This document shows positions 104 to 41,174 of a DNA stretch of 64,000 nt, piece by piece; the first letter of the stretch is position 1; every line of letters begins with the position of its first letter. Location: the IMG/VR virus record IMGVR_UViG_3300036773_000146, positions 32,001 through 96,000 of that record. One strand, 5' to 3'. The position numbers and the translations under genes were made by a program. Below the pieces are notes generated by a model. That model worked only from the letters and a program-made list of their open reading frames with translations, was not told the DNA's origin and did no database searches. Origin of the DNA: a virus.

Positions 104-165
104 CCTCCGGTGCGGTCTGTTGAACTGACAAGACCGACCCTACCCGATCAGGTAGGGTCGGTCAA
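104..165 (-). promoter_or_regulatory. promoter/operator copy 1 plus start-associated motif
   Basis: TTGACC-N17-TAGGGT; palindrome 140-155 with 13-bp arms; CCGCACCGGAGG at 104-115. Confidence 0.85.
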
Positions 166-177
166 GGGCCTTTCTGC

Positions 178-666
178 TCAGCCCAGGTGCCAGGGGGCCC
201 GGCCGGACACGACGGCCTGCTGCATCCGGTCGGCGTACTTGCGGCGCAGGGTCTCGGCGATCGGCCCCACGACGGCGCTGTGCTGGGAGAAAGTGTCCAC
301 GTCCTTGTTGCCCGCCGGGTCGCTGCGGATCTCGATGCCGAAACAGGAGCTGCGCTTAGAGAGGTTGACGGCGCAGTGCATGACCCCGGCCGGGACGTAC
401 ATCACCGCCTCCGGCCCGTGCAGGTACGGCACCCACTCCTCGCCCTCGCGGACCAGGGTGGCGCCGTAGCCGTCCAGCAGGCGCACGGCGATCGGGCTTT
501 TCCAGTGCACGTGCGGGATGGAAATGCCGTCCGGCGGCATCCACACGTCGAGGATAGAAAACGGCGGGGTCTCCCCCGCCGTCTCCTCGGTCAAAATCGG
601 CCGCAGCTTCTGTCCCTGCGGCCCGGTGATCTGGTCGATACTGTTGATCTCGATACGCACAGTCAT
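178..666 (-). CDS. cupin-domain protein
   Basis: Cupin motifs PHVH...LLDG and YVPAGVMHCAVN. Confidence 0.75.
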   Translation of the reverse strand: MTVRIEINSIDQITGPQGQKLRPILTEETAGETPPFSILDVWMPPDGISIPHVHWKSPIAVRLLDGYGATLVREGEEWVPYLHGPEAVMYVPAGVMHCAVNLSKRSSCFGIEIRSDPAGNKDVDTFSQHSAVVGPIAETLRRKYADRMQQAVVSGRAPWHLG

Positions 667-694
667 GCGGTTACTTTCTCACGCGACCGGACGA

Positions 695-1027
695 TCAGGA
701 CTCCGTTGTGCGCCTGGCCCGCTCACGGGAGATCGCGGCGTCGTAGTCGATGTTCATCTCGACCACGTCGTAGTTGGCCGTGTAGACCTCGCCGTCGCCC
801 TTGTCGTAGTCCTGGAAGTCATCACGGACCTCGCCGTGATGATCAATCACCGGCAGGTGGCTGGGGATCTCGTCGCCCTCCAGGTAGACGACGGGCGGTG
901 GGGTCCACCCGGCCTTCAACAGAGCCTTGCGCAAGATGGCCGCGCGCTGGGCGGTGGATCCACCAAGCACGCTGGCCATCTTGCCAACGACCTCGTCGAG
1001 GTCGGTCTTGCGAACGGGTCTGGGCAC
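695..1027 (-). CDS. hypothetical protein
   Basis: GTG after GAAGGAGG; operon packing. Confidence 0.6.
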   Translation of the reverse strand: MPRPVRKTDLDEVVGKMASVLGGSTAQRAAILRKALLKAGWTPPPVVYLEGDEIPSHLPVIDHHGEVRDDFQDYDKGDGEVYTANYDVVEMNIDYDAAISRERARRTTES

Positions 1028-1038
1028 GTGGCCCTCCT

Positions 1039-1218
1039 TCAAATTCGGATCAGGCATTCGGTGGCGTAGCCGTGGCAGCCCACCAGCTGGATGGCCGTGC
1101 AGGAGGCCTCGATCCAGCTGGGTGCCTCGATCTGCACCCAGGCCCACTCGGCGACGAGCACGCCCTCCTGGAGCAGCTCGTGGGTGGTGATGCCCACGTC
1201 GAACTCGTAGACGGCCAC
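1039..1218 (-). CDS. hypothetical protein
   Basis: Short ORF in tight operon. Confidence 0.5.
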   Translation of the reverse strand: MAVYEFDVGITTHELLQEGVLVAEWAWVQIEAPSWIEASCTAIQLVGCHGYATECLIRI

Positions 1219-1309
1219 GGTCAGAACGCCTTCTTGAGCAGCACGTAGAGAGCGACCGCGACGATCGCGCCGAGCACGTAGACGAGGGTCCAGTCGAAGT
1301 CGGTCATGA

Positions 1310-1540
1310 TCAGACCACCTGCACCGGAGTGGCACTCCAGACGCGCCCTGCGCGGGTCAGTGCGAACTCGATCTGGACGTCGCGGAACTCGGGGTTCTCG
1401 ATGTCGTAGTTGATGCCCCCGTCGGACTGGGTCTGCAAGACCCGGCCGTCGGTGAGGAAGATCTTGAAGCGCGGGTTGCCGTTGACCGACAGCTTGAGCC
1501 GCTGAAGGGATTCGATACGACCCTGCGTGGTGTTCTGCAT
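1310..1540 (-). CDS. hypothetical protein (small beta-barrel-like)
   Basis: MQNTTQGRIESL..., GGAGG RBS. Confidence 0.65.
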   Translation of the reverse strand: MQNTTQGRIESLQRLKLSVNGNPRFKIFLTDGRVLQTQSDGGINYDIENPEFRDVQIEFALTRAGRVWSATPVQVV

Positions 1541-1545
1541 GATGA

Positions 1546-1905
1546 TCAGTCCTCCGGGTAGGCGGCGAGGATGCAGCCGTTGATGGCCTCGAAATGAAAG
1601 GCGTACTCGGCGGCTACGGCCTTGGCCGAGGCGGTCTGCGACCACTCGTAGGGCCAGTCGTAGACATCGCCCTCCCAGGCGATGGAGACGGCGCCCTGGG
1701 GCAGCTCTTCGTGCGTGTGGCCCGCCACGAAGAAATCGGTCACGTCGGCCCCGTAGTGCCGGGCCACGGCCAGCGCGACGGTGGCGGCCTTGGCCAGCTC
1801 CAGGCTGGTGCCCTCGCCGGTGCGCGGGCCCTGGCTGTACAGGCCCGTACCGCTGTCGCGCACGTAGGCGGTGTACTCGGGAAGGCTGATCTTGATTTCA
1901 TGCAT
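1546..1905 (-). CDS. hypothetical protein
   Basis: ATG directly after the CCGCACCGGAGG motif. Confidence 0.7.
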   Translation of the reverse strand: MHEIKISLPEYTAYVRDSGTGLYSQGPRTGEGTSLELAKAATVALAVARHYGADVTDFFVAGHTHEELPQGAVSIAWEGDVYDWPYEWSQTASAKAVAAEYAFHFEAINGCILAAYPED

Positions 1906-1910
1906 GCGGA

Positions 1911-1969
1911 CCTCCGGTGCGGCCTGAACGAACAAGACCCACCCTACCCGTTCAGGTAGAGTGGGTCAA
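1911..1969 (-). promoter_or_regulatory. promoter/operator copy 2 plus start-associated motif
   Basis: TTGACC-N17-TAGGGT; CTACCCGTTCAGGTAG 1944-1959. Confidence 0.85.
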
Positions 1970-1981
1970 GGCCCTGCGCGG

Positions 1982-2344
1982 TCAGGGCGTGTACGGGATG
2001 GTCGCGTGCAGGATCACCGTGGTGTTGGCCTGGATCTCGGAGAGCAGGAAGTAGTTCCCGAACGAGCTGTCCTTCGTCCACGCGTCCGGCTGCCGGGTCG
2101 ACTGCCAGATACCCGCGTCCGAGCCGGGGTTCTGGGCCACCCACTCGGCCGGGTTGTTCGTCAGCTCGCTCAACGGCGCCATGGCCAGCAGCTTACCCAG
2201 GTAGTCGCGCATGATCGGCCAGTTGGTGCCCGGGTCCGGCACGTCGGCGAAGGTCCCCACGATGAGGATCAGCGGCGTCTTGATCGTGTCCGACGCGCCG
2301 ATGGCGGTCAGCTCGGCTTCGGCGTGGTCGCCCAGTGCGGTCAT
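1982..2344 (-). CDS. hypothetical phage protein
   Basis: MTALGDHAEAEL...PLSELTNNPAEW...WQSTR; GGGAG RBS. Confidence 0.65.
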   Translation of the reverse strand: MTALGDHAEAELTAIGASDTIKTPLILIVGTFADVPDPGTNWPIMRDYLGKLLAMAPLSELTNNPAEWVAQNPGSDAGIWQSTRQPDAWTKDSSFGNYFLLSEIQANTTVILHATIPYTP

Positions 2345-2378
2345 GATGGTCTCCCTGGTCGGGAGGGCTTCCCCGCCC

Positions 2379-2792
2379 TCACCTATTCGTGCCGTCGCGC
2401 GGGTCCGGCGGCATGGGCTCGGGTCCGAAGCGCTGCTCGGTCCGGCCATCCGCCCAGTCGTTGGCGGCGGACTTGTCGGCGCCGTGATCACGCGAACCCT
2501 GGTAGTACTCCTCGTGGTGGGCCAGCCACTGGGTGCGGGTGAGGTCGGAGTGCTTGTCCGAGGCGCCGCACGTCGGGCAGAGGCCGAGGGGCTCCTTCCA
2601 GATGATCGCCTGGGTGATGGGATCCACCACCTCCACGGCAGGGGCCAGCTGGCCGAGCACCTCGGCGGTGCGCAGGTGCAGGTAGGCGAGGTCGGTCCAC
2701 GGCCCTCCCGGAGTGCCCAGACCGCCGTTCTCCCGGCGGCGAATGTAGCTCTGGGCCGCCTTCACGTGGTCCTGGGCGTTCATGTCGGTCAT
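2379..2792 (-). CDS. hypothetical protein (CxxC)
   Basis: ATGA overlap, GGAGG RBS. Confidence 0.6.
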   Translation of the reverse strand: MTDMNAQDHVKAAQSYIRRRENGGLGTPGGPWTDLAYLHLRTAEVLGQLAPAVEVVDPITQAIIWKEPLGLCPTCGASDKHSDLTRTQWLAHHEEYYQGSRDHGADKSAANDWADGRTEQRFGPEPMPPDPRDGTNR

Positions 2793-3151
2793 GCTTCCTC
2801 CAGCGCTGCTTCGGCGCGGAGCGTGGGCTCCACGCTGTCGGGACATCGGTAGCCGAGCGCACGCAGCGCGGCCACCCGGTCGGCGGCCGCGCTCGCAGTA
2901 GGCTCCTCGAAGGTCTCGCCCGCGTGCGGCAGGTCGAGATCCTCGTGGTGGTAGGGCAGTGTGCTCACGAGCTGATAGCGCGCGATGCACCGCTCGACGA
3001 AGTCCACCGAGCCAGTCGGCACCAGTGGTGGCAGCGGTTCGTCGAAGACCATCCGGCGCGCGGCGACGGCGACCCTCCAGCCGCCGCTCGCGTCCTCCCA
3101 GACGTACAGATCGCACTGGAAGTCGTCGGTGCTCCACCTGCAATAACTCAC
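2789..3151 (-). CDS. hypothetical phage protein
   Basis: VSYCRWSTDDFQCDLYVW; GTGA overlap. Confidence 0.65.
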   Translation of the reverse strand: MSYCRWSTDDFQCDLYVWEDASGGWRVAVAARRMVFDEPLPPLVPTGSVDFVERCIARYQLVSTLPYHHEDLDLPHAGETFEEPTASAAADRVAALRALGYRCPDSVEPTLRAEAALEEA

Positions 3152-3654
3152 CGCTCCTCCAGTGGCTCGGTCGGCGGCGTCGCGGGCTCGAAGGGCACTC
3201 CGGCGCCGCCGACTTCGGGATGCTGCCACCAGCGCTCGACCTTCATGCCGTCGCCTGGGTGGTTCCGCTCGGAAACCTCGTCGATCGCGTCGGCCCACAG
3301 GTTTTTCTGCTCAGTGGTCAGCTGCTTGGTGACGTAGTGCCACTTCACGTAAAGCCAGATGCTGGCCAGCAGCTCCTTGTACTCGTCAACCCGGGGCTTG
3401 AGCGCCTGGCCTCCGATGATCTCGCGAATCTCCTCGAAGGCCCGATGGTCGTTCGGATAGAACCCGATGCTGTCCAGCACCCCCTGGATCGCGTTGAGCT
3501 GCTGAGCCAGGAACGCCCCGTGCCGCGCGGCCTGCTTGAGCATGGCCTTCACGCCGTCGAGTTCGGCCTGCTGATGCCGGATGTGGGCGGCGTGCACCCG
3601 ACGGATCCGCTCCGACTGGGCCAGTTGTTCGCGCAGGTCGTCGATCTCGCTCAC
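3148..3654 (-). CDS. hypothetical coiled-coil protein
   Basis: Overlap-coupled ORF. Confidence 0.65.
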   Translation of the reverse strand: MSEIDDLREQLAQSERIRRVHAAHIRHQQAELDGVKAMLKQAARHGAFLAQQLNAIQGVLDSIGFYPNDHRAFEEIREIIGGQALKPRVDEYKELLASIWLYVKWHYVTKQLTTEQKNLWADAIDEVSERNHPGDGMKVERWWQHPEVGGAGVPFEPATPPTEPLEER

Positions 3655-4103
3655 GAGACGTGGCCTTTCTCGTCGTAGGTGCGCTTGCCGTCCATGACGT
3701 CACGCAGCTCCCGGACGCCGCGCTCGGCCTTCCGGAACGCCTCCTCGACGGCGTGCCGGTGGTCGGGCCGCACGTTGCGCATGTCGCTGTCGGCCTCGGT
3801 CATGGTCAGGTACTGCAACGCCATCTCCACGAAGTAACCGGTGATCATCCGACCTTGCGGGTCGTGGATGTCGCCGAAGAAGTCGGCCAGCTCCTTGCGG
3901 GTCTCCGGCAACGTGGCGTCCTTCGCGCCCGGAGCGCCGGGGATGGCCAGTTGCAGGCTGATCCACCGGGACAGCAGGCTGTAGGGGCTGCCGGAATTGG
4001 CGAAGACTCCGGCGAGGCCGTTGTCCACCAGCCAGACGTGGGTCTCGCTGATCAGCTTGATCAGCTCCTCGCGATTGAGCATGAGGCGCACGTTCTCGGT
4101 CAT
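3651..4103 (-). CDS. hypothetical protein
   Basis: ATGA overlap, GGAGGAG RBS. Confidence 0.65.
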   Translation of the reverse strand: MTENVRLMLNREELIKLISETHVWLVDNGLAGVFANSGSPYSLLSRWISLQLAIPGAPGAKDATLPETRKELADFFGDIHDPQGRMITGYFVEMALQYLTMTEADSDMRNVRPDHRHAVEEAFRKAERGVRELRDVMDGKRTYDEKGHVS

Positions 4104-4510
4104 GACTCCTCCACCAGAGTCTTGATGCGCTCCAGCGCGCGGATCGCGTCGGCGAGTTCCCGCTCGGCGCCGTCGGTGCGGGGATCATCGGCGTCCACGT
4201 CGAAGTAGAGGGCCAGGGCGGACCGCAGGGCGACCTTGCTGACACCCTGCTCCGGCAGCAGCAACACCCGCGACGACGGGTTCTTTATCGCCTCGTCCAG
4301 ACTGGCTAGCGTCTCGGCGGTGGGCGTCCAGTCCGCGTCGAGGCGCAGCGGCTGCGGTGCCGGGCCCGAGAGGATGAACTGCCCGACCGTGCCCTTGAGG
4401 TCCTCGACGAGGTTGCCGTGGGCCAGCTCGATGTCCTCGGTGGTGCCGTCGGCGTGCGTGACGTGCCAGACGCCCGTGAACTCGAACAGGTAGCTGTCGT
4501 CGGCGCTCAT
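4100..4510 (-). CDS. hypothetical protein
   Basis: ATGA overlap. Confidence 0.6.
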   Translation of the reverse strand: MSADDSYLFEFTGVWHVTHADGTTEDIELAHGNLVEDLKGTVGQFILSGPAPQPLRLDADWTPTAETLASLDEAIKNPSSRVLLLPEQGVSKVALRSALALYFDVDADDPRTDGAERELADAIRALERIKTLVEES

Positions 4511-4818
4511 GAACCCTCCTCGGTGTAGTCGGCCAGCTCCTGCTGGCAGGCCCGGTGCAACGCGAGCGACGCGCGCAGCTGATTCCACGTGCTCAGGGAG
4601 AGTGCGGACAGCAGCGCCACCGCTACGAGCTGGACCGCCTGGATGGCGTGGCTGGTGGGTGGCGGCGCGAAGCCGATCAGGAAAACCAGCTCGGCGATGA
4701 AGATCAGGCCGACGATCACCGTGGACACGATCCGGGTCCGCAGGATCTTGCGTGCGGTGTAGGCCTTGAGCGACAGCAGCCGCAGTTCGAGCGGCGGATA
4801 GCCATTGTCGATGTTCAT
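4507..4818 (-). CDS. membrane protein (2 TM)
   Basis: Two hydrophobic stretches. Confidence 0.6.
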   Translation of the reverse strand: MNIDNGYPPLELRLLSLKAYTARKILRTRIVSTVIVGLIFIAELVFLIGFAPPPTSHAIQAVQLVAVALLSALSLSTWNQLRASLALHRACQQELADYTEEGS

Positions 4819-5024
4819 TCGTCACCCACCAGCCTCCGCAGCTCGGCCCACTTGACGCCCAGCTCGCGCCGGACCTCGGCCAGCACGGGCTCGACCAGTG
4901 CGAAGTCGACGCCCTGATCCACGGCGTCGTCGACCGCCATGTACAGCATGTCCATGTCCGTACTGATCTCGCGGATGAACCGCGCGGCACGCTGAGTGTC
5001 ACTGGTCAACGGGCTCTTGCTCAT
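4815..5024 (-). CDS. hypothetical protein
   Basis: ATGA overlap. Confidence 0.55.
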   Translation of the reverse strand: MSKSPLTSDTQRAARFIREISTDMDMLYMAVDDAVDQGVDFALVEPVLAEVRRELGVKWAELRRLVGDE

Positions 5025-5199
5025 GAGATCACTCCTCGGGTTATGACCAGGGCCAAGGCCACCGCGACGACGCCGTGGCTCAGGCACAAGAACAGGGCGA
5101 GAGGTACGGCGGCCGGGATGGCCCGGCACCGCACTCCCCAGGTGGCGCTGACGAGCACGACGGCCACACACCAGATGGCCATGACCGCCAGCAAGACGT

Positions 5200-5394
5200 T
5201 CAGGTCGTCACCCCCTTGGTCGCGGCGATCGCGCAGACCGTGATGACGAAGCCGTTGATCACCAGCGAGATCACCAGCGAGATCACGGCGCCGGTGCCGG
5301 TGTATTTGACGACTTTCTTCTGCCCGGCCGAATACATGGCCGCGAGGATGTTCAAGCCGCAGAGGCCCGCGACAATCCACAGCAAGACGTTCAT
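5200..5394 (-). CDS. small membrane protein
   Basis: Two hydrophobic helices. Confidence 0.6.
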   Translation of the reverse strand: MNVLLWIVAGLCGLNILAAMYSAGQKKVVKYTGTGAVISLVISLVINGFVITVCAIAATKGVTT

Positions 5395-5500
5395 TCCCGA
5401 TCTCTTTTCCAGTCGATGACGATGGCCGCGACCAGCGCGACCAGGATGGCCAGGAGGATGAGCACGAAGGCCGAGCCGACGCCCCAGGCGACGGCCGGGC

Positions 5501-5791
5501 TCAACGCTTCGTCCAAGTGCGACGGGGTCGGGTCCATGCGTGCAGCGTGGCAGTGCCCTCGGCGGTGAGGCGCACGTAGTAGTGCGCAGCCACCGGGCCC
5601 GGTTCCAGCTCGGTCAGACCGGCCTCGCCCAGCTCGCGCATGGCGGCCGACGCGTGCTTGATCACGGGCTCGCCGAGACGGTCGGTCCAGCAGCCCTCCC
5701 AGTGGTGCCGGTTGCCCGCCGCCACCTGGTGCAGCTCGGCCTCGCGACGATCGGTGCGGGTGAAGGGCCGGGCCTCGGCCGGGGCGCTCAT
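5501..5791 (-). CDS. hypothetical protein (winged-helix-like end)
   Basis: ELGEAGLTE...VRLTAEGTATL. Confidence 0.55.
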   Translation of the reverse strand: MSAPAEARPFTRTDRREAELHQVAAGNRHHWEGCWTDRLGEPVIKHASAAMRELGEAGLTELEPGPVAAHYYVRLTAEGTATLHAWTRPRRTWTKR

Positions 5792-6021
5792 GAGCCGTTC
5801 CTGATCTCGTTGGCGAGGTCGCGCAGCTCGTCTCTCCGGTAGCTGGACACAGGCCAGTCCTCGTCTTCTTGAGCCAGCTCCGTCAGCACAGCAGCGACGG
5901 CCAGGGCCAGCTCGCGATCGAGAAATTGCCGGGTGCACAACAGGTGCGTTTGCGTGCAGCCGATCATGTCGTCGACTACCTCCGTGTGGGCGGCGCGCAC
6001 TAGCCGCTCCGGCAGGCTCAT
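5788..6021 (-). CDS. hypothetical protein
   Basis: ATGA overlap. Confidence 0.55.
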   Translation of the reverse strand: MSLPERLVRAAHTEVVDDMIGCTQTHLLCTRQFLDRELALAVAAVLTELAQEDEDWPVSSYRRDELRDLANEIRNGS

Positions 6022-6500: not shown

Positions 6501-6537
6501 GAGGTGCCTCCAGTGCGGCAGTGGGGCGGATGGTCGG

Positions 6538-6834
6538 TCAAGCGAGGCTGCGGCAGAGCTTCTGAATCCGCACGGCGGGGCGGGAGACGAACTGGTCGGT
6601 GACGTGCATCCCGCGTGGACGAGGCAGCACCCAGGCAACCGGGGTGCCGTCGTGGTAGACGAGATAGGAGACGCTACCGTCCATCGCCTCGGCGATCAGC
6701 CGGGAGAACTCCAGGCCGCCCAGCTGGCCCTGGACGAGGCTGTCGGCGCTCGGCTGCACCTCGGCGCGGATGGGACCGCTCCGGAACGCCCGGCGGTGCA
6801 GGATGTGCTCTTCGATCTCGCGGTAGGTGGCCAT
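6538..6834 (-). CDS. hypothetical protein, paralog A
   Basis: VSYLVYHDGTPVAW; same length as and similar to 6841-7137. Confidence 0.7.
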   Translation of the reverse strand: MATYREIEEHILHRRAFRSGPIRAEVQPSADSLVQGQLGGLEFSRLIAEAMDGSVSYLVYHDGTPVAWVLPRPRGMHVTDQFVSRPAVRIQKLCRSLA

Positions 6835-6840
6835 CGTCGG

Positions 6841-7137
6841 TCAAAGCCCGAGGCCGTAGCGGCAGGTGTGCTGGAGCTGCGACGTGGTCTGCGAGAAACG
6901 CTGCGCGGTCACGTGCGCCTGGCCGTCGAGGATCCACGCGATCGGCGTGTAGTAGCTGTAGACGAGGTAGGAGACGCGACCCTCGGCGACGGCCGTGCGC
7001 AGCGCGGCGTACTCCCCCTCGTTGAGCTGGCCCTGACCCACGCTGCCGGGATGCACCTCGGCGTGCGAGGACGCGGCCTCATAGGCCTCGCGGTTCTGGA
7101 TACGGACCTCGTATTGACTGCGCGTGAGTCGCGGCAT
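6841..7137 (-). CDS. hypothetical protein, paralog B
   Basis: VSYLVYSYYTPIAW; ATG after start motif. Confidence 0.75.
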   Translation of the reverse strand: MPRLTRSQYEVRIQNREAYEAASSHAEVHPGSVGQGQLNEGEYAALRTAVAEGRVSYLVYSYYTPIAWILDGQAHVTAQRFSQTTSQLQHTCRYGLGL

Positions 7138-7142
7138 GGCTG

Positions 7143-7200
7143 CCTCCTGTGCGGCTGATGTGGTAAGACCGAGCCTACCTGATCGGGTAGGCTCGGTCAA
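7143..7200 (-). promoter_or_regulatory. promoter/operator copy 3 plus start-associated motif
   Basis: TTGACC-N17-TAGGCT; perfect 13-bp arms around 7180-7185. Confidence 0.85.
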
Positions 7201-7310: not shown

Positions 7311-8123
7311 TCAGACGAGCCGGAAGTGCTCGTCGGTCAGCTCGGTCAGCGACTTGGGCCCGAGACGGCGGATCTTCTTGCCCTCGCGCTTGGCGTTCCA
7401 GGCCTGAGCCAGCAGGCCCAGGAACGGCTTGACCAGCTTGGAGCCCTGGGTCACCTGGTTCATCCGGACGATCGCGTTGCGCAAGGTCAGCTCCGGGTCG
7501 CCGTCGATGAGGCCGGAGCCCTTCTGCACACCGGTCCAGAAGTCGACCGCCAGGGCCGGGTCGATCTCGTGGGTGAGGAAGTACATCGCGGCGGCCGCGC
7601 TCGGGATCGCCCCGATCTCGTGCCGCAGGTTGACCCCGTACCGCACGGCATTGATCATCGGCTCGCGGTTCTTCACGCCGAACTCGACGATCTCGGAGTC
7701 GGTGGGCTTGTAGCCCTCTGACTTGATCTCCTCGATCTGCCACAGGAGCACGATGCGGGCGGTGGCCGCCACCAGCTTCGCCGAGGGCATCTGGAACCGC
7801 ATGGTCAGTTCGTCGGCGGCCGTGCGCTTGCGCTGCTTGTCCATCTTGTAACGGTGCTGGCGGTCGATGCCCTCGATGATGATGAACTCGATCTGGCGGC
7901 CGGACTGGACTACGGCGGACAGCCGGTGCTGGCCGTCGATGAGGTTGCCGTCCTGGTCGAACTTGATCGTCTCCCCGATGTTGGGGAAGTCGCCGTTGGC
8001 CATGTCGCGGGCGAGCTTGTCCACCCAGTCCTGCGACAAGGTGCGGTTCTCGCAGTTCGTGGACAGCCAGTCCTTGGCCATGCGCGGCGTGACGAGCAGT
8101 TTGCGGTGCTTGAGTTCGGTCAA
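7311..8123 (-). CDS. ParB-like / DGQHR-motif protein
   Basis: VTPxMAxxWL..NR...LARDM...LIDGQHRL. Confidence 0.8.
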   Translation of the reverse strand: MTELKHRKLLVTPRMAKDWLSTNCENRTLSQDWVDKLARDMANGDFPNIGETIKFDQDGNLIDGQHRLSAVVQSGRQIEFIIIEGIDRQHRYKMDKQRKRTAADELTMRFQMPSAKLVAATARIVLLWQIEEIKSEGYKPTDSEIVEFGVKNREPMINAVRYGVNLRHEIGAIPSAAAAMYFLTHEIDPALAVDFWTGVQKGSGLIDGDPELTLRNAIVRMNQVTQGSKLVKPFLGLLAQAWNAKREGKKIRRLGPKSLTELTDEHFRLV

Positions 8124-8133
8124 GGGGGTGCTC

Positions 8134-8192
8134 CCTCCAGTGCGGGGTCTGTACGGTGGTTGACACTACCCGACCGAGTAGGATCTTGGCAA
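8134..8192 (-). promoter_or_regulatory. promoter/operator copy 4 plus start-associated motif
   Basis: TTGCCA-N18-TAGTGT; CTACCCGACCGAGTAG 8166-8181. Confidence 0.75.
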
Positions 8193-8200
8193 ATGAAGAG

Positions 8201-11170: not shown

Positions 11171-11373
11171 CAGTCCTTCACCAACTCGACCGGCCCCAGG
11201 GTGCGCTTGGCCAGCTTGCGGTAGTTCGGGATGCCCTCGAAGGTCACCGTCACGGCACGGGCGTCGGTCTCGCTCTGGCACTGGCAGAAGACCGGCGGCT
11301 CCTCACCGTCGTCGAGCACGAAGTCCCAGATCTCCTGCGGGTCGGGGTCGGCCACGAAGTACTCGTTGCTCAT
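11170..11373 (-). CDS. hypothetical protein
   Basis: ATG after start-motif variant. Confidence 0.6.
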   Translation of the reverse strand: MSNEYFVADPDPQEIWDFVLDDGEEPPVFCQCQSETDARAVTVTFEGIPNYRKLAKRTLGPVELVKD

Positions 11374-11380
11374 GATCACC

Positions 11381-11441
11381 TCTCCGGTGCGGGGTGTGGT
11401 TATACGAGACCGACCCTACCAGATTGGGTAGGGTCGGTCCA
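11381..11441 (-). promoter_or_regulatory. promoter/operator copy 5 plus start-associated motif
   Basis: TGGACC-N17-TAGGGT; 13-bp arms identical to copy 1. Confidence 0.8.
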
Positions 11442-17289: not shown

Positions 17290-17538
17290 TCAGTTCTCCT
17301 CGGTGGTGAGCCCGGCGGCGTGCAGGAAGGCAGTCACGCGGTACTCGGCCTCGGCCTGCGCCTCGGCGACGGTGGGGTAGACGGTGTGCGGGTAACGCTT
17401 ACCCGGCAGGGTGGTCTCGACGTCGAAGCGCTCGCTGCCGACAGCCTGCACGTAAGCCACCGGCACGGTGCCAAGCAGACCGACATCGCGAGGGGTGCCA
17501 CCGGAGGTGCGCCCGCTGGTCCAGGTGAGCTGCAACAT
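17290..17538 (-). CDS. hypothetical protein
   Basis: ATG after start motif. Confidence 0.65.
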   Translation of the reverse strand: MLQLTWTSGRTSGGTPRDVGLLGTVPVAYVQAVGSERFDVETTLPGKRYPHTVYPTVAEAQAEAEYRVTAFLHAAGLTTEEN

Positions 17539-17546
17539 GATCTTGA

Positions 17547-17605
17547 CCTCCGGTGCGGTCTGGAACTGATAACACCACCCTACCCGATCAGGTAGGGTGG
17601 TGCAA
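17547..17605 (-). promoter_or_regulatory. promoter/operator copy 6 plus start-associated motif
   Basis: TTGCAC-N17-TAGGGT; palindrome 17580-17595. Confidence 0.85.
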
Positions 17606-18363: not shown

Positions 18364-18555
18364 TCAGGCGCAGTTCCACCACAGGCGGTCGCCCAGCTCG
18401 GTGAGCAGGTCCACCAGCACCGTCCGGCGGTCCGACTGATCCAGGCCGATCAACTCGCCGTAGGCGATCTTCTGCTCGTACCCCGCGATGTGCTCGCGGA
18501 GTTCGGCGATGTTGGCCGCGTTGGCGGCGAGCGGGTGGCGGGTGGTGTTCGACAT
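18364..18555 (-). CDS. hypothetical protein
   Basis: ATG after start motif. Confidence 0.6.
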   Translation of the reverse strand: MSNTTRHPLAANAANIAELREHIAGYEQKIAYGELIGLDQSDRRTVLVDLLTELGDRLWWNCA

Positions 18556-18560
18556 CTTGA

Positions 18561-18621
18561 CCTCCGGTGCGATCCTCAACCTGACAAAACCCATACTACC
18601 CGTTCGAGTAGTATGGGTCAA
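18561..18621 (-). promoter_or_regulatory. promoter/operator copy 7 plus start-associated motif
   Basis: TTGACC-N17-TAGTAT; palindrome 18596-18611. Confidence 0.85.
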
Positions 18622-19559: not shown

Positions 19560-19811
19560 TCAGCCTTCGATCATCTTCAGGGCGGCGGCCTCGCACTTGG
19601 CGCACACCTTGCGCTGGCGGAGAAGCTTGGCGTAGGCCAGCGCCTCGGCCGGGGTCTCGAAGGTCGGGCCCTTGGCGAAGCGGGTCAGGCCCCGGGAGAG
19701 CGCCGAGCAGGCGGTCATCGCGTAGTCCAGGCCGTCGGCCGAGTCCTGCGAGGTGATGTCGAGGCCCTCGATGTGGTTGCTGGTCCGGTTGTAGCGGATG
19801 GTGAACGACAT
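19560..19811 (-). CDS. hypothetical phage protein (CxxC)
   Basis: MSFTIRYNRTSNHI...KVCAKC; follows start motif. Confidence 0.7.
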   Translation of the reverse strand: MSFTIRYNRTSNHIEGLDITSQDSADGLDYAMTACSALSRGLTRFAKGPTFETPAEALAYAKLLRQRKVCAKCEAAALKMIEG

Positions 19812-19816
19812 CGGGG

Positions 19817-19877
19817 CCTCCAGTGCGGCTCGTCTTGCTGACAGATTCATACTACCCGTTCAGGTAGCAGAGCGCAA
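19817..19877 (-). promoter_or_regulatory. promoter/operator copy 8 plus start-associated motif
   Basis: TTGCGC-N17-TAGTAT; palindrome 19852-19867. Confidence 0.8.
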
Positions 19878-19884
19878 GGGCCAA

Positions 19885-20184
19885 TCAGCTGCGCTGTCCC
19901 GAGCCGTTGCACTGGAAGCAATACTTCCGGCCGTGGCGGTAGTAGCGGCTGGCCCCGTCAAACTCTCCGGTGCCGAGGCACTTGCCGCATGCCCGCTCCT
20001 CCAGGGCCTCAACCTCCAGGCGGAGGTTGTCGACCAAGGCCTGGTACTGCGCAACCTGGGCGGCCAGGGTGTCGAACTCCTTGGCGGTGCACCGAGCCTG
20101 GAAGAACTCGGCGTCGAAGACGGCGTGCTTCTCGGCGTCGGCGAGCTGGTGGCGGGCAGTGGCGAGGGTGGCAACGAAGGTCAT
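19885..20184 (-). CDS. CxxCxGxG zinc-finger protein (leaderless)
   Basis: CGKCLGTG...CFQCNGSG; ATG 6 nt after the -10. Confidence 0.7.
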   Translation of the reverse strand: MTFVATLATARHQLADAEKHAVFDAEFFQARCTAKEFDTLAAQVAQYQALVDNLRLEVEALEERACGKCLGTGEFDGASRYYRHGRKYCFQCNGSGQRS

Positions 20185-20219
20185 ACCCTGAGACTACCCG
20201 ATTGGGTAGGGTGGCGCAA
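20185..20219 (-). promoter_or_regulatory. promoter/operator copy 9 (leaderless)
   Basis: TTGCGC-N17-TAGTCT; palindrome 20194-20209. Confidence 0.8.
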
Positions 20220-21128: not shown

Positions 21129-21692
21129 TCAGGCGGGGGTCTGGTCGGCGAGCTGGCGCACGCCGTTGCGCACGGTGCTGTAGTCGCCGCGCCAGTAGGA
21201 CGAGCGCTCGGGCAGAGTCTCCCGCTGATCGCGGACGGTCTCGTCCATGCTCGCCTCACGGCGGACCTCGGCCTCCAGGCGTGCCTCGAACTCCGGCGAC
21301 AGCGCGCGGTTCTCGTGGATGTAGCCCGCGCCCATGTGGACCAGCTCGACCTCGTCGCAGCAGGGCGCGAACTCGGGGCCGGTCTCGCAGAACTTGTCGC
21401 CACCGTGGGTCTCGGCGGTCTGGACGCCGTGCTTCTCGCACCACCACTGGTTCGAGCTGTAGGAGCAGTCACTCAGGCCCTCGAAGCGCGCCGAGCCGAA
21501 CGCGTGGGTGATCTTCTTGACCTGGTCCTCGGTGGGGCCGTCGGTCCAGTTGACCGCGACCGAGCTGCCACCCGCGTACCGGTCGATGCGGACCGAGAAG
21601 AACCGCGCGGGCAGCTGCGGGAAGGCCAGCTTCAACTGACGGCGCATGAGCTTCGCGACCTCGGCGGTGTCGATGTGGCGGGCGTTCGACAT
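21129..21692 (-). CDS. LPD29-like (large polyvalent protein-associated) domain protein
   Basis: AKLMRRQLKLAFP...FSVR..YAGGSSV.V.WTDGPT..QV......F.G..D. Confidence 0.75.
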   Translation of the reverse strand: MSNARHIDTAEVAKLMRRQLKLAFPQLPARFFSVRIDRYAGGSSVAVNWTDGPTEDQVKKITHAFGSARFEGLSDCSYSSNQWWCEKHGVQTAETHGGDKFCETGPEFAPCCDEVELVHMGAGYIHENRALSPEFEARLEAEVRREASMDETVRDQRETLPERSSYWRGDYSTVRNGVRQLADQTPA

Positions 21693-21697
21693 GGTGT

Positions 21698-21762
21698 CCT
21701 CCGGTGCGGGGTGATCCCTGACTGACAAGACCCACACTACCCGTTCGAGTAGTGTGGGTCAA
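21698..21762 (-). promoter_or_regulatory. promoter/operator copy 10 plus start-associated motif
   Basis: TTGACC-N17-TAGTGT; palindrome 21737-21752. Confidence 0.85.
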
Positions 21763-22552: not shown

Positions 22553-22729
22553 TCAGGCGCAGAGCGGGCAGAGGTACAGCTCAGCCTGATAGCGGAGCGA
22601 CTCCGCGTGCCACACGGTCCGGCAGGAGTCACAGGTATCCGGGGTGACGTCCAGGCACTCGATGCTGATGACGCGACCGTGGTCGGTGGTGATCTGGTCG
22701 ATCCGGATGGCTGCGGCCGTGTTGCTCAC
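22553..22729 (-). CDS. small zinc-ribbon protein
   Basis: CDSC...LCPLC; follows start motif. Confidence 0.6.
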   Translation of the reverse strand: MSNTAAAIRIDQITTDHGRVISIECLDVTPDTCDSCRTVWHAESLRYQAELYLCPLCA

Positions 22730-22735
22730 GAGAAA

Positions 22736-22796
22736 CCTCCAGTGCGGCTCGGTTGGTGACACCACTGACACTACCCGTTCGGGTAAGATGAGTCAA
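22736..22796 (-). promoter_or_regulatory. promoter/operator copy 11 plus start-associated motif
   Basis: TTGACT-N17-TAGTGT; CTACCCGTTCGGGTAA 22771-22786. Confidence 0.8.
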
Positions 22797-23101: not shown

Positions 23102-23449
23102 TCAGTAGGTGATCGAGCCGCCGTCCATGCCGACCGGCATAACTCCGACCTTGGCCAGGCGGCGCGCCTCGTCGGCGTCCTCGGCGTACTCCCAGCCCTC
23201 GACCTCGCACACATCGGCGTGCACGTGCTCGTGACCGGCCTCGCAGACATAAGCCCGACCGTCGTCCCACGCCAGAGCGTCGCACTCGCGGACGATGCGG
23301 CGGCCGTCCTCGTCGGTCACGAAGCCCCAGCCATCACGCACCTCGTACTGCCAGCCGCAGGGATAAGCCTCTCCGGCATAACAGCGCCGAACGGCCTCGA
23401 CGGAGTGGTGGGTCTTCTTGCAGTTCCCGCAAGTGATGGTGCTCGACAT
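23102..23449 (-). CDS. Cys/His-rich hypothetical protein
   Basis: CGNCKKTHHSVEAVRRC; follows start motif. Confidence 0.7.
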   Translation of the reverse strand: MSSTITCGNCKKTHHSVEAVRRCYAGEAYPCGWQYEVRDGWGFVTDEDGRRIVRECDALAWDDGRAYVCEAGHEHVHADVCEVEGWEYAEDADEARRLAKVGVMPVGMDGGSITY

Positions 23450-23454
23450 GAATG

Positions 23455-23513
23455 CCTCCGGTGCGGCTCGTGCTGACGTCGCCGACACTACCTACCCGAT
23501 CAGGTAGTGTCAA
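23455..23513 (-). promoter_or_regulatory. promoter/operator copy 12 (operator shifted 4 nt) plus start-associated motif
   Basis: TTGACA-N17-TAGTGT; palindrome 23492-23507. Confidence 0.85.
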
Positions 23514-31621: not shown

Positions 31622-31882
31622 TCAGGCGCGAGCCCGGGAGAGGGCGCGCCGCTCGTCTTCGGTGAAGCCGCCGAAGACACCGTCGTCGAGACCGTTGTCG
31701 AGTGCGAACGCCAGGCATTCCTCGCGCACCGGGCAGCGCGCGCAGACGGCCTTGGCCTCGGCGATCTGCCGCTCGGCCGGACCGACCTCGGAGATCGGGA
31801 AGAACAGCTCGCCGTCCTCCCACTGGCAGGCGGCGTCCTGCATCCAGCGCACCTGGCGCATGTCGAACTCGAACGTGAACAC
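31622..31882 (-). CDS. whiB: WhiB family transcriptional regulator
   Basis: W..DAAC...LFFP...AKAVCARCPVREECL..AL.....GVFGG.TEDER. Confidence 0.95.
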   Translation of the reverse strand: MFTFEFDMRQVRWMQDAACQWEDGELFFPISEVGPAERQIAEAKAVCARCPVREECLAFALDNGLDDGVFGGFTEDERRALSRARA

Positions 31883-31889
31883 GATGTCG

Positions 31890-31950
31890 CCTCCGGTGCG
31901 GCTTGAGTGCTTGCCTGTTTAGGCTACCTGATCGGGTAGGGTCAGCACAA
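31890..31950 (-). promoter_or_regulatory. promoter/operator copy 13 plus start-associated motif
   Basis: TTGTGC-N18-TAGCCT; palindrome 31924-31939. Confidence 0.8.
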
Positions 31951-34243: not shown

Positions 34244-34821
34244 GAGAGGTTAGTGTAACAAGTCGGGCCGATGCCTCGGCTTCTGGACACCTCGTCGGTG
34301 AGCGTCCGGCCGCAAACGCCGCACTCGCCGATCTCCTTGCCGTAGCGGGCCGTCGCCTCCAGGACGCCATCCGACTCGATCTTCCGGAGCACGGAGCGGG
34401 CGACCACGAACGGCAGCTCGCGCTCCTCGTCCGAAGCCATCACCGCGACGGTGACGTAGCCGGTCTTGGACACCCGCACCCGGTAGAAGGCGGTCTCGCC
34501 GTCCTTGTTGTCCACGGCGTAGCGGCCGTCCGGCACCTCGGGCAGCTTTGGGCGCGGCGTGCGGTCCTCGCGAGGGTCGACCTGCTGGCCCAGCCGGTGC
34601 TCGTTGCGCTCGTCCTTCAGCGCGCTGATGGTGTCGCTGGCCTTGGCGGCGGTGAGCTGACCGGCCTGGTCCTGGGCGCGCAGCTCGAACCACAGCTGAC
34701 GGCCGCGCTCCACGTCGTACTCGGCGATCTGGGTAAGCAGGTCCGTCAAGAAGTCGATCTGGCCCTGGCTGCGCTGGCGCGGGGCGCTGGCGGTGCGGGG
34801 GAAGTTGCGGGTCGAGTTCAT
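34240..34821 (-). CDS. DUF6011-domain protein
   Basis: GRYAV...FYRV...CGVCGRTLTDEVSRSRGIGPTC. Confidence 0.8.
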   Translation of the reverse strand: MNSTRNFPRTASAPRQRSQGQIDFLTDLLTQIAEYDVERGRQLWFELRAQDQAGQLTAAKASDTISALKDERNEHRLGQQVDPREDRTPRPKLPEVPDGRYAVDNKDGETAFYRVRVSKTGYVTVAVMASDEERELPFVVARSVLRKIESDGVLEATARYGKEIGECGVCGRTLTDEVSRSRGIGPTCYTNLS

Positions 34822-34826
34822 CGTGG

Positions 34827-34886
34827 CCTCCGGTGCGGCTGCGTGCTGACCTCGTTGACACTACCCTTCCGGGTAGTCTTCGTCAA
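34827..34886 (-). promoter_or_regulatory. promoter/operator copy 14 plus start-associated motif
   Basis: TTGACG-N17-TAGTGT; palindrome 34861-34876. Confidence 0.8.
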
Positions 34887-39147: not shown

Positions 39148-39157
39148 ACCCGCTCCT

Positions 39158-39970
39158 CTACAGTCCGTGCCGCTGGCGCAGCGTGTCCAGCACCCACTTG
39201 CCGTCGCGGAATTGCCCGACCGGCCGACCGGCCAGCGGGGTCTCCTGCTTCGGCGTCGGCTGCTTGGCTGCCAGCTTCTCGCCCTTGGCGGCCCAGTGGG
39301 TCTTCTGTTCGTCAGTGGCCGGGTAAAGGTGCGCGAACGAGTGGTATCCCTCAGGCGGGTTCTCGCGTTCGTGCTCGGGCAGGTGCGAGTACTTCTGCTG
39401 CCAGCCGCCGTGATCCTTCATCGCATCCGGATCGAGCTTCGGGTGCAGGTACTTTTCCGAGAAGTCGTGCAGGTCGAAGTAGGCCTTTTGCCGCTGATCG
39501 ACGGCGAACTTGCGCACGTCGCCCTCGTCCTTGAAGTGCCTGCTGGCGTCGAGGTAGACCTTGTTCTCCGCGCGGTCGAGCCAGCCGCCCTGGTAGCTGT
39601 CCGGCTTGGCCAGGTGCTCGGCGGCGGCCTGCCGGTGCGCGGCGATGTGCTCGGGCTGGATGTCCTTCAGATCATGGACGGTGGCCATCCCCGAGCCCTC
39701 GGGCGCGTGGTAGGAGGCCATGAAGCCGGACGACGGAGCACCACCGCGCGCCGGGTGACTGGAGAAGCCGCCGTTGGCCACCAGGTCGTGCAGACGGCCG
39801 TGGTCGTACTCGTTACTGCCCGAGGGCGCGGTGGCCGTCCGATGACCGGCTGAGGCCCCCGCAATGGCATTCAGTGCCTCCTGCGGGTCATCCGGCAGGA
39901 ACAGGTGGACGAAGCGGCCGCCGGACTTGGCGGCCGTGTGCAGTCCCCACAGCGAGGGCTCGAAGGTCAT
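39158..39970 (-). CDS. His-rich phage protein (possible SAM-lyase-like fold)
   Basis: GGFS.....P.SGFM...YQGGW......YLD.S........Q.AYFDL. Confidence 0.6.
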   Translation of the reverse strand: MTFEPSLWGLHTAAKSGGRFVHLFLPDDPQEALNAIAGASAGHRTATAPSGSNEYDHGRLHDLVANGGFSSHPARGGAPSSGFMASYHAPEGSGMATVHDLKDIQPEHIAAHRQAAAEHLAKPDSYQGGWLDRAENKVYLDASRHFKDEGDVRKFAVDQRQKAYFDLHDFSEKYLHPKLDPDAMKDHGGWQQKYSHLPEHERENPPEGYHSFAHLYPATDEQKTHWAAKGEKLAAKQPTPKQETPLAGRPVGQFRDGKWVLDTLRQRHGL

Positions 39971-40020
39971 GGGGGCTCCCGAGGCAGAAGAGGCGGTCTT
40001 CGCCTGTTGGTGCGCCGAGG

Positions 40021-40647
40021 TCAGTCCTCGTGCAGGTGATGCAGGTGGTGGCCGACGGCCTTGATGGCCACGTAACCGCCGACGATGGCGCCGGTGGCGA
40101 TCAGCGCGTTGCGCCGCTCGATCCGCTCCTGGTCGGAGAAGAACTCGTCGAACCGGGCACCGAGCTGCTTGGTGTAGTCGACCTCGGCGGCCTTGCGGCG
40201 CTTGCGGCCGATCCACAGGGCGACGAACGGCAGGGCGAACCAGGTGTAGACGACCACCGGGCCGACGGCGCCGATCAGGCCGCACGAGAGCACGAGGTAG
40301 ATCCCCACCCAGCGCAGAGCGTAGGTCCAGCGCTTGGCGTCGGCGGCCGCGCGGCGCTCGAAGCGGGCGTTGATCCGGCGTGCGTTCTTCAGGCTCGGCA
40401 TGCCGTACTGACGGCCGTCGCGGCGATCGCGGTACCAGTACACGCCGTGGCTCTCGGCCTCGAAAACCAGGTGCTGGCGGGCGTCGGCCGCGCGGTGCGG
40501 GTAGGTCTCGTCCCACACCTGCCACTCCGGTGCTTCCTGCTCCGGCTCCTCGACGGTGAACTCGGCGTCCTCGATCGGGTGCTCGGCGCGGTGCATCGCC
40601 ATGACCTCGTCCCAGCTGAGCGGGCGGAAGTCGTTCGTGTCGGTCAT
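40021..40647 (-). CDS. membrane protein
   Basis: 2-3 hydrophobic helices. Confidence 0.65.
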   Translation of the reverse strand: MTDTNDFRPLSWDEVMAMHRAEHPIEDAEFTVEEPEQEAPEWQVWDETYPHRAADARQHLVFEAESHGVYWYRDRRDGRQYGMPSLKNARRINARFERRAAADAKRWTYALRWVGIYLVLSCGLIGAVGPVVVYTWFALPFVALWIGRKRRKAAEVDYTKQLGARFDEFFSDQERIERRNALIATGAIVGGYVAIKAVGHHLHHLHED

Positions 40648-40919
40648 GCCGTTGCCCTTCGTTGTTCCAACCGGCTCACGGCCCGGAGGATGCTGTGCCA
40701 CTGCATGCCCATGCGGGCGACGATCTCGTCCTTGGTGCAGCCCTGCGACTGGAGTTCGCGCAGGTCCTGCTCCACATCCTCCGCCCGGTGCGACCGGCGG
40801 GGGAAGTCGACGTGCTGGCCCCGGTCGTAGAGGTAGCCGTAGCAGCGCAGGCACATCCCGCGCGCGGCGACGGGGCATTTCTTCCCGCACCGCGCGCAGG
40901 GGGCCTTCGGGCCGTACAT
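40644..40919 (-). CDS. zinc-finger plus HTH protein
   Basis: CARCG...RGMCLRCY; TKDEIVARMGM..HSI.R. Confidence 0.7.
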   Translation of the reverse strand: MYGPKAPCARCGKKCPVAARGMCLRCYGYLYDRGQHVDFPRRSHRAEDVEQDLRELQSQGCTKDEIVARMGMQWHSILRAVSRLEQRRATA

Positions 40920-41107
40920 CAGGCCAGGTCCAGCTCGCGCTCGGCCAGGGCCTCGTCGAGCAGGCTGCGGAGGCTGGCCTTACCGGCGGCGCGGAGGCTG
41001 CGGCGGCTCTTGGCCTTGACCGAGGACGGCGCCATCGAGAGGCAGTCGATCCGGTAGTGCGAGAAGTGGCGGGCTTCGCGGTCACGGTGGGTGGCAATGG
41101 CGTTCAC
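40919..41107 (-). CDS. hypothetical protein
   Basis: GTG after start motif. Confidence 0.55.
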   Translation of the reverse strand: MNAIATHRDREARHFSHYRIDCLSMAPSSVKAKSRRSLRAAGKASLRSLLDEALAERELDLA

Positions 41108-41113
41108 GAGGGA

Positions 41114-41174
41114 CCTCCTGTGCGGTCTTCTTGGTGACACCACTGATACTACCCGTCCGGGTAGTGACACGCAA
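41114..41174 (-). promoter_or_regulatory. promoter/operator copy 15 plus start-associated motif
   Basis: TTGCGT-N17-TAGTAT; palindrome 41149-41164. Confidence 0.8.

Follow-up and report, generated by a model that had tools for sequence, protein, structure and literature searches.

The small genes of a large actinobacterial phage, represented by the virus record IMGVR_UViG_3300036773_000146 (hereafter G000), are headed by repeated promoter units which very probably form one family of early promoters for the sigma-A (HrdB-type) RNA polymerase of the host, and which carry a common 16-bp palindrome, CTACCC-N4-GGGTAG. The window, i.e., the whole stretch of 64,000 nucleotides analysed here, corresponds to bases 32001-96000 of this complete 149,735-bp genome, which has direct terminal repeats and a G+C content of 67%. 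A gene call based on G+C at third codon positions (GC3) yielded 234 genes, nearly all on the minus strand and ordered, along the direction of transcription, as virion genes, a replication block encoding a DnaE-type polymerase, DnaB, RecA and a 5'-3' exonuclease, and about 60 kb of small genes, mostly orphans. We propose, with moderate confidence and from sequence comparisons, that the units are early expression cassettes of a lytic myovirus of the Bxz1/E3 type, in which the palindrome would serve as an operator and the long arms present in some units would form a hairpin in read-through RNA.

Searching the window with the palindrome consensus CTACCCGATCGGGTAG, allowing up to 3 mismatches, gave 18 matches, against 0.33 +/- 0.57 expected from 100 dinucleotide shuffles. 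All 15 copies listed in an initial annotation of this DNA were recovered with 1-3 mismatches (starts at 140, 1944, 7175, 8166, 11416, 17580, 18596, 19852, 20194, 21737, 22771, 23492, 31924, 34861 and 41149). Since the remaining three matches (48113, 50006 and 52090) are weak and lie inside open reading frames (ORFs) of the replication block without promoter context, the statement that the 41.2-64 kb region has no copy also holds. A motif scan of the whole genome, proposed in the same annotation, enlarged the family to about 26 units in G000, spanning genome positions 11.7-73.2 kb; one plus-strand copy precedes the sole plus-strand helicase gene, at genome position 102648. A complete relative of 155 kb (G001, PolIII 69% identical) contains 33-34 units and three more metagenomic contigs contain 19, 6 and 1, so that 84 units with a leader are available from five related metagenomic phage contigs. 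Although G000 and G001 have few genes of the small-gene array in common, the units are conserved between them. Two further relatives, the complete G002 (PolIII 52% identical) and G003 (46%), lack both the palindrome and the leader and have no repeated dyad of another kind. The unit was also absent from phage isolates in nucleotide searches with a 7-kb piece and with one unit, Rfam gave no match in the window, and a scan of bacterial genomes (596 Gb; 185,579 species genomes) returned three isolated matches at chance level and no prophage copies. The repeated element is thus real, and its family is more extensive than first noted.

The promoter character of the units is apparent in their sequence. 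The annotation had placed a minus-strand promoter around each copy, and in 14 of the 15 we indeed find a -35 hexamer (TTGACC, TTGACG, TTGACT, TTGCAC, TTGCGC, TTGCGT, TTGCCA, TTGTGC or TGGACC), a spacer of 17-18 nt and a TAGnnT -10 that is opened by the TAG of the palindrome; at 23492, an exception for which it had allowed, TTGACA abuts the palindrome and a separate TAGTGT lies behind it. The -35 and -10 sequences, spacing and orientation characteristic of group-1 sigma (sigma-A/HrdB, sigma-70-type) promoters are present in 15/15 units of the window and in 76/84 of the clade, and the final T of the -10 is more than 90% conserved though it lies outside the palindrome. The unit promoters match the streptomycete/actinobacterial consensus reported by Strohl in 1992. 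A TCAG, usually within GTCAG, begins 7-8 nt past the -10 in 29/65 units with the common arrangement (class I, see below) and probably marks the transcript start. Further downstream comes a conserved block that the annotation had not described, CCGCAC[N]GGAGG, with a start codon 4-9 nt further; it is present in 14 units of the window, and the standard leader with its ribosome-binding site thus reads GTCAG ... CCGCACNGGAGG ... ATG. The unit that remains (20194) is leaderless, the ATG following the -10 TAGTCT at 7 nt, which is the usual geometry of leaderless actinobacterial mRNAs. Each copy had been said to head a short gene cassette, which is true only in part, as the number of called genes from one unit to the next ranges from 1 to 15.

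The 15 units of the window are as follows (hairpin-type units, with long arms, and the class II register are taken up below):

Unit 1, 95..165 (-), hairpin type: -35 TTGACC at 160-165, palindrome 140-155, -10 TAGGGT at 137-142, leader CCGCACCGGAGG, ATG at 97; outer arms 8/8 paired, RNA fold -28.4 kcal/mol.
Unit 2, 1903..1969 (-), hairpin type: TTGACC-17-TAGGGT, palindrome 1944-1959, leader, ATG at 1905.
Unit 3, 7135..7200 (-), hairpin type: TTGACC-17-TAGGCT, palindrome 7175-7190, leader, ATG at 7137; arms GACCGAGC/GCTCGGTC 8/8 paired.
Unit 4, 8121..8192 (-), plain: TTGCCA-18-TAGTGT, palindrome 8166-8181, leader, start codon at 8123; a separate long hairpin lies immediately upstream.
Unit 5, 11371..11441 (-), hairpin type: TGGACC-17-TAGGGT, palindrome 11416-11431, leader CCGCACCGGAGA, ATG at 11373.
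Unit 6, 17536..17605 (-), hairpin type: TTGCAC-17-TAGGGT, palindrome 17580-17595, leader, ATG at 17538; arms 7/8 paired plus one G-T.
Unit 7, 18553..18621 (-), hairpin type: TTGACC-17-TAGTAT, palindrome 18596-18611, leader TCGCACCGGAGG, ATG at 18555; also found by a promoter scan.
Unit 8, 19809..19877 (-), plain: TTGCGC-17-TAGTAT, palindrome 19852-19867, leader, ATG at 19811.
Unit 9, 20182..20219 (-), leaderless: TTGCGC-17-TAGTCT, palindrome 20194-20209, ATG at 20184, 7 nt past the -10; no CCGCAC leader.
Unit 10, 21690..21762 (-), hairpin type: TTGACC-17-TAGTGT, palindrome 21737-21752, leader, ATG at 21692; arms GACCCACA/TGTGGGTC 8/8 paired.
Unit 11, 22727..22796 (-), plain: TTGACT-17-TAGTGT, palindrome 22771-22786 with left half TTACCC, leader, GTG at 22729.
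Unit 12, 23447..23513 (-), class II register: TTGACA at 23508-23513 abuts the palindrome 23492-23507; separate -10 TAGTGT at 23485-23490, GTCAG 8 nt on, leader, ATG at 23449.
Unit 13, 31880..31950 (-), plain: TTGTGC-18-TAGCCT, palindrome 31924-31939, leader, GTG at 31882; the first gene encodes a WhiB-like factor.
Unit 14, 34819..34886 (-), plain: TTGACG-17-TAGTGT, palindrome 34861-34876, leader, ATG at 34821.
Unit 15, 41105..41174 (-), plain: TTGCGT-17-TAGTAT, palindrome 41149-41164, leader CCGCACAGGAGG, GTG at 41107; first unit past the replication block.

The position of the palindrome relative to the -10 separates two classes of units. In class I (65 units) it starts 4-5 nt past the -35 and its TAG opens the -10, whereas in class II (11 units, including the window copy at 23492) TTGACA directly adjoins the palindrome and the -10 is a separate TAnnnT, 1-2 nt behind it, an assignment validated by the TCAG that begins 8 nt past the separate -10 in 9/11 cases. 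In class II units the GGGTAG is therefore not the -10, and the palindrome is nonetheless perfect in 8/11, with mismatches at 4/132 positions vs. 41/780 in class I. Intermediate offsets occur, the palindrome being always within the spacer, 0-5 nt from the -35. Its conservation is thus no by-product of the -10, and the sequence must be read by something or else be kept uniform by recombination. Across the 84 units of the five contigs the core is nearly invariant and the flanking arms vary, and a conserved site with dyad symmetry overlaps the RNA-polymerase binding site at many promoters, as in a regulon of one repressor and its operators. We consider it probable, on these sequence patterns, that a protein reads the palindrome; against this, recombination between units (concerted evolution) could instead account for the invariant core. 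The initial annotation had assigned all units to one dimeric repressor acting in a temperate or phage-plasmid state: host-type promoters do head the accessory blocks and are absent from the replication block, and the palindrome is a separate element at the place where a dimeric repressor would act, while the proposed lifestyle was not borne out (see below). At orthologous promoters of G000 (18845/18862) and G001 (130886/130903) two palindromes stand in tandem, 17 bp from start to start; the second G000 copy (site 18845-18877) has the symmetric change GTACCC...GGGTAC. The genes behind these tandem palindromes include one for a protein with a GmrSD_C-like nuclease domain, and Pfam and PHROGs searches detected no helix-turn-helix (HTH) in the three genes that follow.

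About one quarter of the units extend the palindrome to an inverted repeat of 30-32 bp with compensatory changes, indicating that the hairpin matters in these units. When pairing of the outer arms was scored over eight flanking positions on each side in 81 distinct units, the distribution was bimodal: 21 units had at least 7/8 Watson-Crick pairs, none had 6, and the others had 1-5. After the right arms had been shuffled among units, 2.4 units reached this level on average and at most 7 did. The long stems of these 21 units comprise 13-16 bp (-21 to -34 kcal/mol), and at least ten different arm sequences occur. For a 14-pair helix on an ungapped alignment (A1), 75.7% of the cells were paired vs. 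69.7 +/- 0.9 in shuffled controls (0/500) and 33-43% when the helix was slid, with a covariation score of 0.228 vs. 0.157, figures that are inflated by the relatedness of the units. A compensatory swap is seen between orthologous units of G001 (87146) and G006 (23193), CC>GG in the left arm being accompanied by GG>CC in the right one. The -35 contributes its GACC to the left arm, and the last bases of the -10 and the discriminator belong to the right arm, so that the sequence behind the -10 covaries with the -35 variant (TTGACC with GGTC, TTGCGC with GCG), a covariation explained by base pairing rather than by a protein. Because the whole stem lies upstream of the predicted start, its RNA form exists only in transcripts that read through from the preceding cassette. 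When the two strands of the 26 strongest hairpins were compared, the sense strand gave the more stable fold in 18 and the antisense strand in 2 (p=0.0016). This fold bias, together with wobble pairs that rescue outer arms in 7 sense cases vs. 1 antisense, leans towards a role as RNA, although it is partly confounded by promoter constraint, as are the wobble counts in the core (G-T vs. A-C), whose right half is under that constraint.

It seems to us an evenly balanced matter whether the long arms act as RNA hairpins, since several observations tell against it. The wobble asymmetry is weak and the position beside the loop runs the opposite way. The hairpins are not followed by a proper U-tract (the usual tail is TTGTCAG) and so do not have the form of intrinsic terminators; a terminator scan of window positions 1-20000 flagged a single unit, that at 1944. 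Long arms are also not significantly rarer where a separate hairpin exists upstream, either by folding energy (p=0.39) or by stem length, although a function in termination would lead one to expect this. Hairpin promoters of the N4 type and single-strand promoters of the Frpo type were considered and rejected, as the linear -35 and -10 are intact and folding would separate them.

The closest precedent for these units, missed in the initial annotation, is provided by the promoter-early stem-loop (PeSL) cassettes of the T4-type phages RB49 and phi1, whose genomes have about 50 of them each (Arbiol et al. 2010, PMC2839356). A PeSL consists of a strong sigma-70-type early promoter and a stem-loop, mostly placed between the -35 and -10 or over the -10; the units sit in hyperplastic ORFan regions, where they act as linkers for modular shuffling (PMC2839356). 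Judged against this description, the present units are likewise repeated early promoters with a stem-loop in a plastic ORFan region. Both systems comprise dozens of repeats with a host-type early promoter, a stem-loop in or over its -35/-10, then a Shine-Dalgarno sequence and start codon, the stop codon of the previous gene lying just upstream; both are concentrated among small ORFans and rare in core modules, with mosaic junctions at the units. In a comparison of G001 with G006, 17/66 homology breakpoints were located no more than 80 nt from a unit vs. 4.5 expected, and breakpoints occurred at 14/22 gene starts with a unit vs. 33/91 without (odds ratio 3.1, p=0.03); units thus mark mosaic junctions between close relatives, with modest enrichment. 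The present units differ from PeSLs in belonging to a Bxz1/E3-like lineage with a high-GC actinobacterial host, in having no AT-rich upstream region, in sharing one invariant 16-bp palindrome throughout the units and phages of the clade, in forming a long stem in only about 26% of cases, without a U-tract, and in their fixed start-associated leader. Their promoter and terminator activities are putative, and a NarL/GerE-type HTH protein, described below, co-occurs with them.

The most serious competitor of the proposed operator follows from this precedent. The whole palindrome, core included, would be only a stem-loop (a terminator, attenuator, RNase III site or 3' stabilizer) with no dedicated DNA-binding regulator, and the unit would double as a recombination linker, its core being kept uniform by recombination between units. 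The placement of the RB49/phi1 stem-loops is the same, and one of them reduced lacZ expression in a reporter to about the same extent as the strong rrnB T1 terminator (PMC2839356). The covariation and compensatory swaps of the arms, the more stable folding of the sense strand and the breakpoints enriched at units all fit such a cassette. However, in three out of four units the stem is limited to the 6-8 bp of the core (36-nt folds of about -3 to -17 kcal/mol), and there is no U-tract. Moreover, a hairpin as such does not call for a particular sequence, but the core does not vary, unlike the arms, which change with compensation; displacement from the -10 leaves the core just as perfect, and it is always found in the spacer, 0-5 nt from the -35. 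We therefore regard a cassette without a DNA-binding reader as a possible but clearly less likely explanation. The authors of the PeSL study themselves speculated that the conserved stem might bind a protein (PMC2839356).

For the operator that we favour, a candidate reader was found in the genome. Pfam or PHROGs searches with about 190 proteins, run singly or via two pooled alignments, gave only four DNA-binding candidates, and the two pooled alignments revealed one classical dimeric HTH among 182 proteins of the early and middle region. This protein of 109 amino acids is a stand-alone NarL/GerE/LuxR-type domain (Pfam GerE, E=1.2e-9) encoded at genome positions 11810-12139 (-), 20 kb before the start of the window. 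Its best solved relative is the C-terminal domain of NarL (PDB 1je8; low identity, E=1.9e-5), with which two lysines of the recognition helix are aligned, which we take to be base-contacting residues. With its orthologues in G001 and G007, the protein is present in each of the three motif-bearing genomes for which this region is available (it is not part of the G006 fragment), and none was found in the motif-less G002 and G003; such proteins are rare in phage isolates. A dimer of the NarL output domain binds to inverted heptamers, as in the engineered site TACCCCTAAAGGGGTA, and the isolated domain is a constitutive repressor of frdA (PMC4549865). The phage half-site, (C)TACCC, shares the NarL pentamer TACCC exactly. 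The two proteins thus have in common a GerE/LuxR-type HTH, and the isolated NarL domain, whose dimer recognizes an inverted repeat with half-sites starting with TACCC, is a constitutive repressor where its site overlaps a promoter; they differ in that the phage candidate has no receiver domain and low identity to NarL, its binding being predicted only.

Further indications come from the promoter of the HTH gene itself. In G000 and G007 it has a conserved variant of the palindrome, CTGCCC-N4-GGGTAG, with an additional GGGTAC in front of it, and the leader that follows is long and non-standard. Such a variant is as expected of a weaker autoregulatory operator. In this region of G000 (11680-12260) three half-sites, GGGTAC-TGCCC-N4-GGGTAG, can be recognized, and a hairpin with a 15-bp stem lies behind the HTH gene, directly before the next unit at genome position 11724. 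Other features speak against the 109-amino-acid protein as the reader. The pentamers are separated by 4 bases in the phage palindrome vs. 6 in NarL 7-2-7 sites, and the palindrome does not have the form of a 7-2-7 operator (inverted TACYYMT heptamers, 2 bp apart), so that the likeness is one of mechanism and not of membership. The co-occurrence of protein and motif amounts to three genomes vs. two, and many other genes show the same pattern; the recognition helix is kept only conservatively among the orthologues (K-M-N-V-K, K-S-H-I-R and K-I-H-A-R). The assignment of the palindrome to this protein is therefore offered as a tentative lead. Two candidates named in the initial annotation fared worse. 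The protein encoded at 46726-47445 (-) consists of three tandem HTH repeats of about 60 amino acids and a Cys-rich tail, its best matches being DNA-binding modules of HNH homing endonucleases, and no nuclease domain was detected in it; the product of 62440-63003 gave a sub-threshold match to DUF7229 in Pfam and nothing in PHROGs.

The palindrome could conversely be the site of an activator or of a sigma-appropriating factor, in which case the units would be delayed-early or middle promoters dependent on a phage protein. Activation is known for NarL/GerE-type proteins besides repression (PMC4549865), and a WhiB-like, sigma-A-binding factor is encoded in the region. We consider this improbable: the -35, spacing and -10 by themselves approach the host consensus, the spacers of 17-18 nt being optimal, and a site in the spacer and over the -10 occupies the position of a repressor. 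MerR-type activators that bind in the spacer use spacers of 19-20 nt, which also counts against an activator. Equally improbable is a role in recombination, an idea raised for the GGGG...CCCC stems of PeSLs (PMC2839356). It would agree with the mosaic breakpoints at units and with the highly variable gene content of the array between G000 and G001, in which the units are conserved. Nevertheless, no recombinase or integrase was found, the breakpoint enrichment is modest and conserved islands would yield it anyway, and the fixed position of the palindrome within the promoter would be left unexplained. An analogy with integron attC sites was rejected because there is no integrase.

Several features of the genome bear on the lifestyle of the phage. 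Three large myoviruses of the Bxz1/E3 type, Rhodococcus phage E3, Mycobacterium phage Myrna and Gordonia phage Stormageddon, have major capsid proteins with about 60% identity to that of G000. A matching layout is described for Rhodococcus phage Finch, predicted to be lytic, in which all genes but one for a helicase run one way and small orphans form a 40-kb array (PMC13313380). The complete G000 genome encodes no tyrosine integrase, serine recombinase or Cro/CI-type HTH_3 protein, which makes a lysogenic immunity repressor unlikely. The temperate or phage-plasmid state suggested in the initial annotation thus finds no support, in view of these absences, of the capsid similarity to lytic Bxz1/Myrna/E3-type myoviruses and of the lack of prophage copies in the bacterial genomes scanned. 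A point against the scheme proposed here as a whole is that the phage is known from metagenomes only.

Multi-copy operators are typical of the temperate phages phiC31 (conserved inverted repeats), P1 (C1 operators) and L5 (stoperators). The phiC31 and L5 sites had been named as analogues of the palindrome; after the PeSL cassettes, multi-copy operators of this kind are the second analogue. The shared features are a short conserved intergenic site repeated some 15-30 times and the control of many units by one protein, the difference being that those phages are temperate and their proteins immunity repressors, whereas the present phage looks lytic. L5 stoperators are furthermore asymmetric 13-mers acting on elongation within operons, and the present sites, dyads located in nearly every case in the promoter spacer, are within the core promoter and not of this type. 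The temperate lifestyle that goes with lysogenic immunity as known for phiC31, L5 or P1 C1, and that would show in an integrase or partition system or in prophage copies, was not borne out for our phage. An immunity repressor silencing dozens of genes in a prophage or phage-plasmid, for which the multi-copy operators of phiC31, L5 and P1 and an FtsK/SpoIIIE-like gene on the opposite strand could be quoted, is therefore highly improbable, given that the complete genome has no integrase, resolvase or HTH_3, that its relatives, and Finch with the same architecture, are or are predicted to be lytic (PMC13313380), and that only three chance-level matches occur in 185,579 species genomes.

The leader can be compared with another group of actinophage repeats, the SAS/ESAS repeats of Cluster K mycobacteriophages. 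These asymmetric sequences of about 12-13 bp, all in one orientation, contain the Shine-Dalgarno sequence and stand a few bases ahead of the start codon in some of the non-structural genes; about half have an inverted repeat immediately upstream (PMC3203893), and their function was still open in 2025 (PMC12699233). The present leader is similarly a short repeat near gene starts containing a Shine-Dalgarno sequence, but the sequences differ (GGGATAGGAGCCC in Cluster K vs. CCGCACNGGAGG here), and the Cluster K inverted repeats, of 17 bp with spacers of 4-13 bp, are not tied to a readable -35/-10 and belong to temperate siphoviruses. The leader CCGCACNGGAGG also occurs without the palindrome promoter, at window positions 17816-17860 and genome coordinates 13302, 24413 and 10751 (L095/L096), in several cases directly behind an ordinary GC-rich hairpin; it is therefore a separable module. 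The first gene of the replication block within the window (63700-63790, minus strand) has the leader CCGCACAGGAGG behind a different promoter, TTGAAA-17-TATGCT, whose -35 is flanked by the inverted repeat CTCACT...AGTGAG and which may represent a second regulatory class. The motif-less G002 contains 18 copies of CTGATCATG at gene starts; these correspond to overlapping stop and start codons (TGA/ATG), suggesting translational coupling rather than repeated promoters.

Some genes of the array and its surroundings can be assigned a function. A WhiB-like factor (window 31622-31882, minus strand; Pfam E=1.1e-24) is encoded by the first gene behind the unit at 31924, with conserved counterparts in G001, G003 and G006. 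Region 4 of sigma-A is the target of WhiB-type proteins, and the phage factor could itself retune the host polymerase. An Lsr2-like protein (32857-33225, minus strand), with dimerization and DNA-binding domains, is also present in G001 and G002 and corresponds to a phage copy of the actinobacterial xenogeneic silencer. The WhiB-like and Lsr2-like genes together point to an actinobacterial host. A protein of 120 amino acids (1982-2344, minus strand) matches Tad3, an inhibitor of type I Thoeris (Pfam E=1.6e-10; the G001 copy is 68% identical), and this anti-defence gene fits an early role of the array in host takeover. The only plus-strand island of the window (25023-28050) comprises an ORF of 90 amino acids, a DUF2637 protein and an FtsK/SpoIIIE-like ATPase of 669 amino acids, the FtsK/SpoIIIE-like island being conserved in G001 and G006.

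In the scheme that we favour, the host RNA polymerase would switch on dozens of unrelated small genes together straight after infection, anti-defence genes included. The palindrome in the -35/-10 spacer would most likely be the operator of a dimeric phage regulator, possibly the 109-amino-acid NarL/GerE-type protein whose own promoter carries the conserved, weaker variant, and this regulator would shut the unit promoters off jointly, producing an early pulse and not lysogenic immunity. Long arms would fold in read-through RNA and most likely end, insulate or stabilize the upstream RNA, as shown for PeSL stem-loops.

Palindromes on phage early promoters are common, and no new principle is involved. 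The units nevertheless provide a grammar by which early expression in large uncultured actinophages can be read, made of a promoter, an embedded palindrome, a predicted fixed transcript start and a fixed leader, which can be used to annotate the starts and operons of orphan genes, including anti-defence genes. They also extend the PeSL idea, of regulatory cassettes that double as shuffling linkers, beyond T4-type coliphages to an unrelated lineage and host phylum, and offer, in the 16-mer and the 109-amino-acid NarL/GerE-type protein, a concrete pair for experimental testing. More speculatively, and in our view rather unlikely, a single element of about 32 bp would perform four jobs, as a host-type promoter, as the operator of a stand-alone NarL-type repressor, as a terminator or insulator of read-through RNA and as a shuffling linker. 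If so, actinophage expression cassettes would be self-contained units movable as a whole, and such elements might also account for the SAS/ESAS repeats of Cluster K mycobacteriophages, a question open since 2011.

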